Shown here: piece after piece, positions 4,641 to 5,200 of the stretch
How positions within the stretch are numbered: position 1 is the first letter of the stretch
Layout: the number at the start of each line of letters is the position of its first letter
Virus genome (UHGV): UHGV-0256785
Strand: one strand, 5' to 3'
Length of the DNA stretch: 26,660 bases
DNA from: a virus
Translations under genes and position numbers: made by a program
The notes under the pieces: generated by a model
Told to the model about the DNA's origin: nothing
Database searches by the model: none
The model's input: the letters and a program-made list of their open reading frames with translations, nothing else

Positions 4641-5001
4641 GCATTTGAAATAAGCCTTATTGTATTGCAGCACTGGCGTATTTTTTATTACGTGGGAGCA
4701 GGTTGTTTTAAGAGACATTCTGTTTTCTGGCTATGATTTGAGGCTAGGTTAGCCTCAGTGCTGATTTTTTTGCGACAGCAGAATGGTGCATTGCTGGTGG
4801 AGATTTTGTATTTCCTGGCAGGGTCGGTGATGCATCATTCTGGTGTTGTAAATAACACCACCGGGGTGTTCCTCAGAGCGAGGGTGGTTAAAAGAGTCGG
4901 TTTAACGGGAAATCACAGTATTCATACAGGACGGAATACTTCGGGAGGCACCCGACACCTCGGTTTTATTACAATTAAGAATGTATTTCTTGCATTGACC
5001 A

Positions 5002-5026
5002 ACCGCCGTATCCGGCGGTTTTTTTT
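5002..5026 (+). terminator. strong intrinsic terminator in the tRNA-to-lysis spacer
   Basis: Stem ACCGCCG (5002-5008) / CGGCGGT (5013-5019), loop TATC, T8 run. Confidence 0.7.
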
Positions 5027-5159
5027 ATTCAGAATTCCGTTTCTTTATGGTTCGCTGCGGCGGGCCTTTTTCATATCTGCGCTTTACTCAACGTGCATTG
5101 AATCTGAATACATCACATAAAAGACATCGGTGGATGCCTTCGACGGGGTGTTTTATTAC

Positions 5160-5181
5160 GGGCCGCTGGCGGCCCTTTTTT
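5160..5181 (+). terminator. intrinsic terminator immediately upstream of the first lysis gene
   Basis: Stem GGGCCG (5160-5165) / CGGCCC (5170-5175), loop CTGG, T6 run 5176-5181; ends 8 nt before the GGAG of the next gene. Confidence 0.65.
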
Positions 5182-5200
5182 ATTTACAGGAGAAAAAAGT

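Follow-up and report, generated by a model that had tools for sequence, protein, structure and literature searches.

The spacer between the last tRNA gene and the first lysis gene of UHGV virus genome UHGV-0256785 (positions 4641–5200) is probably a modular late-operon leader that combines a source of structured non-coding RNA, a stack of terminators upstream of the lysis genes and an emptied cargo slot. The stretch of DNA that was analysed (the window, 26,660 nt) is the late region of a lambdoid prophage, and all of its listed genes are on the + strand. The original prediction described a 560 bp spacer between tRNA-Gly and the first lysis gene, and its edges are confirmed at 4640 and 5201. 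The Q antiterminator, the tRNAs, the spacer and the lysis cassette are all on the + strand, which supports the late-leader reading. The components are all of known kinds, namely a cargo slot of the Shiga toxin (Stx) type, late-leader terminators and prophage small RNAs (sRNAs) of the STnc100/PasD type, and the three-domain, tRNA-linked trailer is an undescribed and unannotated variant.

The tRNA trailer and its relation to STnc100 and PasD

Homologues of positions 4641–5035 are present in 423 of 5426 complete Escherichia coli genomes, 226 of them nearly full length, with 70–94 % identity, and they are almost never annotated. In related prophages the trailer of approximately 390 nt and the genes for tRNA-Thr and tRNA-Gly move as one block, with 83–94 % identity. 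For 58 distinct variants of the trailer region (alignment A2) RNAalifold gave a consensus of 61 pairs, in which 98.0 % of the cells are paired (36–62 % in slid controls), 18 pairs are changed on both sides (4–7 in slid controls) and 157 cells are changed on both sides (6–42 in slid controls). None of 500 shuffles reached the fraction of paired cells or the number of doubly changed cells, none matched the covariation score and eight reached the number of doubly changed pairs, with the caveat that related sequences may beat shuffles without any structure; the slid controls, together with the many double changes in separate helices, are a stronger argument for the fold than the shuffles. Since G.U accounts for 15.1 % of the cells and A.C for only 0.7 %, the fold is assigned to the + strand, on which late transcription runs. 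Judged from these comparisons, the trailer (4641–5030) is a conserved structured RNA on the + strand that carries compensatory changes. The presence of small structured RNAs in the spacer had been suggested in the original prediction, and the structure is borne out by the covariation in 4641–5030, with further support from weak matches to STnc100 and PasD that were obtained in both search directions.

Domain A (4641–4771, + strand; minimum free energy, −37.4 kcal/mol; z = −4.2) is a multi-branched tRNA 3′ trailer that is closed by 4668–4674/4757–4763 and followed by seven U residues at 4765–4771. None of the 58 variants departs from the closing stem (GCACUG/CAGUGC) or the U-run, even where the interior sequence is unrelated, and the inner helices (helices 1–3 of the consensus) show compensatory changes. 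In nearly all loci the domain is linked to the tRNAs, extending from the 3′ end of the last tRNA to the U-run. It resembles in this respect the 3′ETS-leuZ RNA, which Lalaouna and colleagues are said to have described in 2015 as a regulator that originates from the 3′ trailer of a tRNA, in that domain A also runs from the 3′ end of the last tRNA to an intrinsic terminator; domain A differs in being longer (about 130 nt) and phage-borne and in having no sequence relation, and a sponge role for it is only putative. Domain B (4771–4852, + strand; −40.8 kcal/mol, z = −6.7) is a nearly perfect hairpin of about 30 pairs. It corresponds to helix 4 of the consensus (19 pairs), which is 98.5 % paired with five pairs changed on both sides; alignment columns 178 and 245, for example, hold AU in 32 and GC in 26 sequences. 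A role as a processing site for a double-strand-specific RNase is possible.

Domain C (4853–5030, + strand; −56.4 kcal/mol, z = −3.1) resembles STnc100 and PasD and ends at terminator T1. It has a closing helix (4860–4869/4955–4964) and inner hairpins at 4871–4883, 4884–4916, 4917–4940 and 4942–4954, and its 3′ part consists of an A/U-rich single-stranded stretch and then T1. The fold of the single sequence is the same as the comparative structure, in which 99.2 % of the cells are paired across 29 variants and six pairs are changed on both sides (0–2 in slid controls), and the single strand before T1 (UUGCAUUGACCAA) is conserved in most variants. A weak terminator at 4952–4967 and a stem-loop at 4854–4870 had also been predicted here, and neither holds up: their pairing reaches 80.7 % in the 29 variants, 183 of 500 shuffles are as good, and one pair in each of the two helices is broken in about half of the variants. 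The bases of these rejected hairpins sit in other helices that are 99 % paired and show compensatory changes.

No match was found in the spacer at the gathering thresholds of Rfam. The covariance-model search that had been proposed for this segment did, at a permissive threshold, align 4835–5030 end to end with positions 1–206 of the STnc100 model (RF02076; EcOnc27/sRNA103 of E. coli O157:H7), at 28.6 bits (E ~1e-4 in a 1-kb search) and thus under the gathering score of 47 bits. On the element just 3′ of stx2B in the Stx2k phage this model gives 64.9 bits, the score of a typical copy. For the two PasD RNAs of enteropathogenic E. coli (EPEC) E2348/69 it gives 41.4 (PasD2) and 37.7 bits (PasD1), both also below 47; the two PasD genes were located by their coordinates in the supplement of PMC8550237. 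In the reverse direction, a roughly calibrated covariance model of the window's family (R1), run with filters off over 61 kb, gave as its best non-self matches PasD2 (21.7 bits, E 0.009) and PasD1 (18.9 bits, E 0.033), with 11 bits on the STnc100 of the Stx2k phage, and all three alignments are full-length and at the known coordinates. Other permissive Rfam matches in the spacer, including microRNA precursors on hairpin B, TarB and suhB, were far under threshold and were taken as chance.

The likeness to STnc100 extends to location and layout: this prophage RNA, some 200 nt long, is encoded in the late region, after Q and before the lysis genes. The window element lies between Q (1458–1853) and the holin (5201), and domain C follows the consensus over its full length, with a long-range closing helix, inner hairpins that include a first one of the UCCUC...GAGGG type and a CGGGAGGCACCCG hairpin, and an intrinsic terminator at the end. 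Apart from the lower score, the window copy differs in that it follows tRNAs and a long hairpin, whereas the typical copy follows stx2B (STnc100/EcOnc27 sits just 3′ of this gene; PMC12711010), and its 5′ third and the stretch before the terminator diverge in sequence. The 5′ halves of PasD1 and PasD2 align recognisably to domain C (AAAuaAC.CC..GG.G..UCCUC...GAGGG), although the PasD seed UGUGAG is replaced in the window by CUUGCAUUGACCAA, and PasD lies 3′ of a DUF3927 gene whereas the window element lies 5′ of a DUF3927 remnant. PasD and STnc100 have already been linked as diverged relatives in a 2026 preprint (bioRxiv 10.64898/2026.05.13.724894), and sRNAs of this type are Hfq-dependent and located between Q and the holin operon (PMC8550237; bioRxiv 10.64898/2026.05.13.724894). 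Given that the weak scores fall at the same positions, together with a common architecture and 5′ halves that can be aligned recognisably, we conclude that domain C is likely to be a distant, tRNA-linked variant of the STnc100/PasD superfamily that falls outside RF02076 by the Rfam criterion. With a hairpin terminator at its 3′ end, a tail of eight U and, further 5′, an A/U-rich single strand, domain C has the typical build of an Hfq-dependent sRNA, and it may bind Hfq and regulate targets.

Several further observations concern these RNA families. The relative L025 carries two STnc100-like elements, at 2237–2435 and 3005–3208 (35.5 and 32.8 bits), which flank tRNA-Thr/tRNA-Gly upstream and downstream. 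The R1 model also matches the − strand of the window at 26052–26134 (18.8 bits, E 0.035), mainly through a AAAUAACA start and a GGCGCC...GGCGCC hairpin, a match that a terminator-like hairpin probably gives by chance. A scan of genome contigs with a motif of 16 specified bases (TTCGGGNGGCACCCGAC) gave chance matches only, in G+C-rich genomes. Strong matches to the sok antitoxin RNA (111–115 bits) lie a few kb from the tRNA-trailer module in L065 (1801–1975) and L082 (8743–8915), and Sok RNAs near Pas sRNA genes are described in the Pas preprint (bioRxiv 10.64898/2026.05.13.724894).

Terminators and the cargo slot

A terminator scan of 4641–5200 gave five hits that represent four distinct sites, all on the + strand, where dinucleotide shuffles gave 0.6 +/- 0.6 (an approximately eight-fold excess). 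T0 is a hairpin at 4738–4758 within the long-range stem 4668–4674/4757–4763, followed by the seven T at 4765–4771, and has the G+C-rich hairpin and U-tract of an intrinsic terminator with four G-C pairs. The other three have five to six G-C pairs and 5–8 T: T1 (AACCGCC-GUAUCC-GGCGGUU and a U-tract, 8 U in all; stem 5001–5020, T-run to 5026; −13.4 kcal/mol, z = −4.0), T2 (stem 5049–5066, then TTTTT; −12.0 kcal/mol) and T3 (stem 5160–5175, six T to 5181; −12.6 kcal/mol). Across the 58 variants the stem of T1 is invariant and its loop variable. The two strong terminators predicted at 5002–5026 and 5160–5181 are recovered as T1 and T3, and the stem-loop predicted at 4740–4756 is real and conserved; the earlier inventory of two strong terminators and a weak one stands for the strong pair, while the weak one is unsupported and T0 and T2, which make four in all, had been overlooked. 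Further terminator-like sites are found on the + strand at 2775–2796 and 3108–3125, between Q and the methylase gene, and with these the late leader has at least six same-strand terminators before the holin. We note that transcripts from the late promoter of an Stx2 phage that terminate at tR′ give rise to the StxS sRNA, which is 74 nt long and lies directly 3′ of PR′ (PMC7547250). The window would be similar, by analogy, in that a late-leader terminator overridden by Q also sets the 3′ end of a regulatory RNA in lysogeny; its elements differ in lying about 3 kb further downstream, 3′ of tRNAs, and in having no sequence relation to StxS.

T3 is part of a module (5107–5185, + strand) that consists of a hairpin at about 5120–5142, a U-rich stretch and T3 itself, which ends 6 nt before the AGGAG ribosome-binding site of the first holin (5188–5192). 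Besides phiP27 and the Stx2k phage, 43 variants retain this module. Homology breaks off just past the U-run in at least 26 loci, where a different sequence is joined downstream, which identifies the T3 block as an independent unit; in one of them (L008) a lambda-S-type holin is annotated there. No match to Rfam was found for the T3 module. Its helices hardly vary, and its first hairpin shows mostly wobble changes and, by eye, one compensatory change, too few for the module to be classed as an sRNA.

The spacer was compared by BLAST and alignment with the prophages of annotated E. coli genomes, with phage records and with 94 IMG/VR stretches that share a conserved 20-mer. Two blocks are retained at 83–94 % identity, from 4300 to about 5030–5082 and from about 5101–5150 to 5300, and the interval between them is variable. 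Four classes can be told apart by how far T1 lies from the T3 block (approximately 72–80, 150, 270–320 and 690–830 bp). The shortest class comprises the window, the nearly identical L074, L096, L078, L087, L025, L069 and one of the two copies in phage SerU-LTIIb; the class of 270–320 bp is the commonest and holds an insert of about 190 nt with its own hairpins; and the longest class carries genes, which are TerB and DUF3927 in E. coli A36 and, in A19, a pair of hypothetical genes. L074 (IMG/VR uncultivated virus genome, UViG, 2547132488_000017) matches the window at 98–100 % identity in the tRNAs, in domain C and in the T3 block (2501–2895 and flanks). Over 4300–5300 no complete E. coli genome of the collection has more than about 94 % identity to the window, and its exact spacer arrangement is therefore rare among sequenced strains.

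This variable interval is the position at which toxin cargo is carried in related phages, as had been predicted. Its left edge is the T2 module (5037–5082, + strand), whose homologue in two Stx2 phages lies after the last tRNA and before stx2A; BLAST aligns 5049–5082 (85–96 %) with positions 1971–2004 of phiSTEC1575-Stx2k (L009), between argO and stx2A, and by eye a T2-like hairpin precedes stx2eA in phiP27 (L002, ~3355–3398). In phiSTEC1575-Stx2k, T2 (1971–2004) and T3 (5001–5043) bracket stx2k and further genes, and in phiP27 the order is tRNAs, T2-like hairpin, stx2eA/B, L27, T3 block and then the same holin as in the window, with homology restarting at window position 5107, 53 bp before the annotated phiP27 holin. 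Since the T2 and T3 blocks flank stx2k in the one phage and stx2e in the other, the place of the toxin operons corresponds exactly to the interval from T2 to T3 of the window. For A36, homology stops at window position 5082 and restarts at 5101, with 690 bp (TerB and DUF3927) in between, and A19 holds its two hypothetical genes there. The alignment to cargo-carrying lambdoid prophages that had been proposed has thus mapped the junctions and found the cargo between T2 and T3. The likeness to the Stx phages also includes the gene order and the cassette of holin, second holin and M15 endolysin, and the differences are that the window has tRNAs for Thr and Gly in place of Ile/Met and Arg, and no toxin or other accessory gene in its slot, with about 24 bp, including a DUF3927 remnant, from the T2 to the T3 module.

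The empty junction (5083–5112, + strand), at which relatives hold 0.15–3 kb more, retains approximately 25 nt of the 3′ end of a DUF3927 gene. Its sequence (TTTACTCAACGTGCATTGAATCTGAATACA) aligns to the last codons and the stop codon of the DUF3927 ORF (open reading frame) of A36 (CCTTTACTGCATAAATCTGAATAA; L004, ~4463–4486), an alignment that one of 2000 shuffles equals; compared with a variant without the DUF3927 gene tail, 695 of 2000 shuffles do as well, and there is no alignment. The proposal that this is a vacated cargo site is thus supported on a short sequence, and the junction is likely to be a deletion scar left by the loss of cargo of the TerB–DUF3927 type. The slot for Shiga toxin and accessory cargo is mapped to about 20 bp, and an emptied copy with a scar may be useful for tracing the gain and loss of toxin cargo.

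LT-II toxin was also considered as cargo of this slot and was rejected, as the eltIIb genes of SerU-LTIIb sit 3′ of the endolysin. In that phage (L001, 942–4400) the module of tRNAs, trailer and holin is duplicated in tandem; in copy 1 tRNA-Arg replaces tRNA-Thr, the spacer is of the long type and the second holin is truncated, and copy 2 has the short spacer of the window type. The insert of about 190 nt that most relatives, unlike the window, carry between T1 and the T3 block (L003, ~3740–3930, with counterparts in L001, L005, L007, L008 and about 30 IMG/VR loci) is non-coding and has several hairpins. Of the 55 pairs predicted in it, 10 are changed on both sides (for example CACGAGC...GCUCGUG versus CACGGAC...GUCCGUG), and an Rfam search at E <= 0.001 gave nothing; the insert may be a further structured RNA that annotation has missed.

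Proposed mechanism and alternatives

In lambdoid phages Q renders RNA polymerase that initiates at PR′ resistant to terminators, and phage accessory genes and tRNAs are expressed in lysogens from their own promoters. Against this background, we propose that the structured RNA would be made with, or just after, the phage tRNAs, as a trailer closed by T0, a long hairpin and a domain of about 175 nt resembling STnc100/PasD that extends to T1. T0, T1, T2 and T3 would halt transcripts from lysogen promoters before the holin, the sources being a promoter-like site 5′ of the tRNAs and, in relatives, the promoters of the cargo. A promoter-like site of this kind was found by a scan 5′ of tRNA-Thr (TTGAAA-16-TAATAT, 4398–4425), and a perfect TTGACA was seen by eye at 4383–4388. 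Termination at these four sites would yield tRNAs and trailer RNAs while the holin stays silent, and after induction RNA polymerase modified by Q would pass all four terminators so that the lysis genes are expressed. Processing of hairpin B could free the 5′ end of domain C, as for PasA, which has been reported as cut from a longer transcript. The cargo slot lies between T2 and T3 and was probably emptied by a deletion that left the DUF3927 gene tail.

A more specific version, which we offer tentatively, is that tRNA-Thr, tRNA-Gly and the 390-nt trailer form one precursor, from which processing at the tRNA 3′ end and at hairpin B releases two or three stable regulatory RNAs that target host mRNAs in lysogens, among them one of the 3′ETS type ending at T0 and one of a new STnc100/PasD-like subfamily ending at T1, and that the same segment is the first half of a four-terminator lock on lysis. 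Prophage sRNAs encoded between Q and the lysis genes (StxS, AgvB/AsxR, EcOnc27/STnc100 and the Pas RNAs) rewire host regulation in pathogenic E. coli, and the trailer would add a divergent, tRNA-linked subfamily that has been missed by Rfam thresholds and by annotation in hundreds of genomes; if this is correct, about 8 % of E. coli genomes carry an sRNA operon linked to tRNA genes that has gone unannotated. The four-terminator stack is also a testable case of lysis genes that are silenced 3′ of constitutively expressed tRNAs and accessory genes.

A number of points count against the late-leader reading as a source of RNA. The accumulation of the RNAs, their ends (5′ ends included), Hfq binding, target regulation and the terminator efficiencies are all things that we infer from the sequence. 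The covariation controls correct only in part for phylogenetic relatedness, and the alignment that was tested had also supplied the structure; the helices of T1 and T3, which never vary, lend no covariation support. A scan for promoters that could serve domains B and C gave as its best candidate TTAAGA-18-TATGAT (4708–4737), whose 9 of 12 matching positions equal chance expectation. The STnc100 score falls well short of the family threshold, the reverse E-values (0.009–0.03) are weak, come from a roughly calibrated model and are partly driven by the terminator, and BLAST of 4641–5200 against the PasA, PasD1 and PasD2 loci of E2348/69 (L010, L011; word size 7, E <= 0.01) found no match. The seed UGUGAG, which PasD has 5′ of its terminator (PMC8550237), is absent from the window's spacer, which reads UAUUUCUUGCAUUGACCAACC at 4983–5003, and the remnant argument rests on about 25 nt.

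The main rival is that the stack of terminators and processing hairpins serves for insulation only, shielding the lysis genes and releasing the tRNAs, with RNA fragments as by-products that do nothing in trans and the likeness to STnc100 and PasD reflecting shared ancestry of late-leader DNA and not an active sRNA. The strand-specific excess of terminators, the shuffling of modules among phages as DNA blocks, the subthreshold STnc100 score and the nil support from seed or target for an sRNA all fit such a role. A bare terminator, however, would not need approximately 360 nt of conserved, covarying sequence, and the 360 nt or so that lie 5′ of T1 are kept at 78–94 % identity, with compensatory changes in helices that are not part of a terminator (4, 6 and 10) and with the single strand before T1 maintained in most variants. 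The related PasD RNAs, moreover, are abundant, Hfq-bound and have many targets (PMC8550237), and we regard insulation as the sole function as rather unlikely. Cis-regulation, coding and chance are less likely still. Hairpin B and the T3 module might act on the late mRNA, through cleavage by RNase III or RNase E or as a conditional terminator, and so tune the timing or level of the holin instead of giving rise to separate RNAs; the unusual length and stability of the hairpin B duplex, the position of T3 6 nt from the AGGAG and the retention of the T3 module beside different lysis cassettes are compatible with this. Hairpin B nevertheless moves with the tRNA module rather than with the lysis genes, with up to about 0.8 kb of cargo between it and the holin, and in many loci T3 precedes an unrelated lysis cassette and is thus not matched to one holin leader, which makes a cis-acting regulator of lysis improbable.

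That the region is decaying recombination junk with hairpins formed by chance is very improbable: it is mosaic and has a deletion scar, but the terminators exceed expectation about eight-fold on one strand only, the fold z-scores range from −3 to −6.7, and the sequence is conserved in 423 genomes with compensatory changes. A protein-coding gene seems the least probable explanation, and the original view that the spacer holds no credible ORF is upheld. The longest ORF (4758–5120; 120 aa from a GTG start) is uninterrupted in the window and in six close relatives, and the Prokaryotic Genome Annotation Pipeline (PGAP) calls a hypothetical protein at the homologous stretch in a few genomes, as in E. 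coli ETEC1732 (WP_064226585.1), so that a small protein might be proposed. In the other 51 of the 58 variants, however, this ORF meets a stop within 5–48 codons and frameshifting indels of 1–2 nt are frequent; it also passes through T1 and T2, the homologous stretch is unannotated in most genomes, and the substitution pattern is consistent with base pairing.

Neighbouring genes and RNAs

The genes upstream of the spacer, all on the + strand, encode a DUF968 protein (44–1093), RusA (1106–1477) and the Q antiterminator (1458–1853; Pfam PF06530), and are followed by RNAs of the isrK/C4 type (1881–2081; Rfam), an ORF6N protein, two small ORFs and an N6/N4 DNA methylase (3272–4318). Downstream, also on the + strand, are the first holin (5201–5590; Pfam Phage_holin_8, E = 5e-22), the second holin (5568–5855) and the M15 endolysin (5852–6235).

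The two tRNA genes, tRNA-Thr(UGU) at 4487–4562 and tRNA-Gly(UCC) at 4566–4640 (both + strand; ARAGORN), score 72.2 and 65.6 bits, respectively, with the Rfam tRNA model. They are approximately 95–99 % identical to chromosomal tRNA genes of 5421 of the 5426 E. coli genomes, and in Salmonella records their counterparts are annotated as tRNA-Tyr, tRNA-Thr and tRNA-Gly, which suggests that the phage pair was captured from a host tRNA operon. The source is presumably thrU-tyrU-glyT-thrT, with loss of the Tyr gene.

Directly 3′ of Q, Rfam matches above threshold identify isrK (1894–1971, 69 bits), the C4 antisense RNA (1997–2081, 66 bits) and the c4 a1b1 target (1881–1934), and this trio is followed by the ORF6N protein, which has an antirepressor N-terminal domain. 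The ORFs at 2135–2347 and 2328–2699 (+ strand) lie next to these RNAs, in an arrangement that we take to resemble isrK-orf45-anrP of Gifsy-1. The isrK/C4/a1b1 trio is also present in the relatives L025 and L032.

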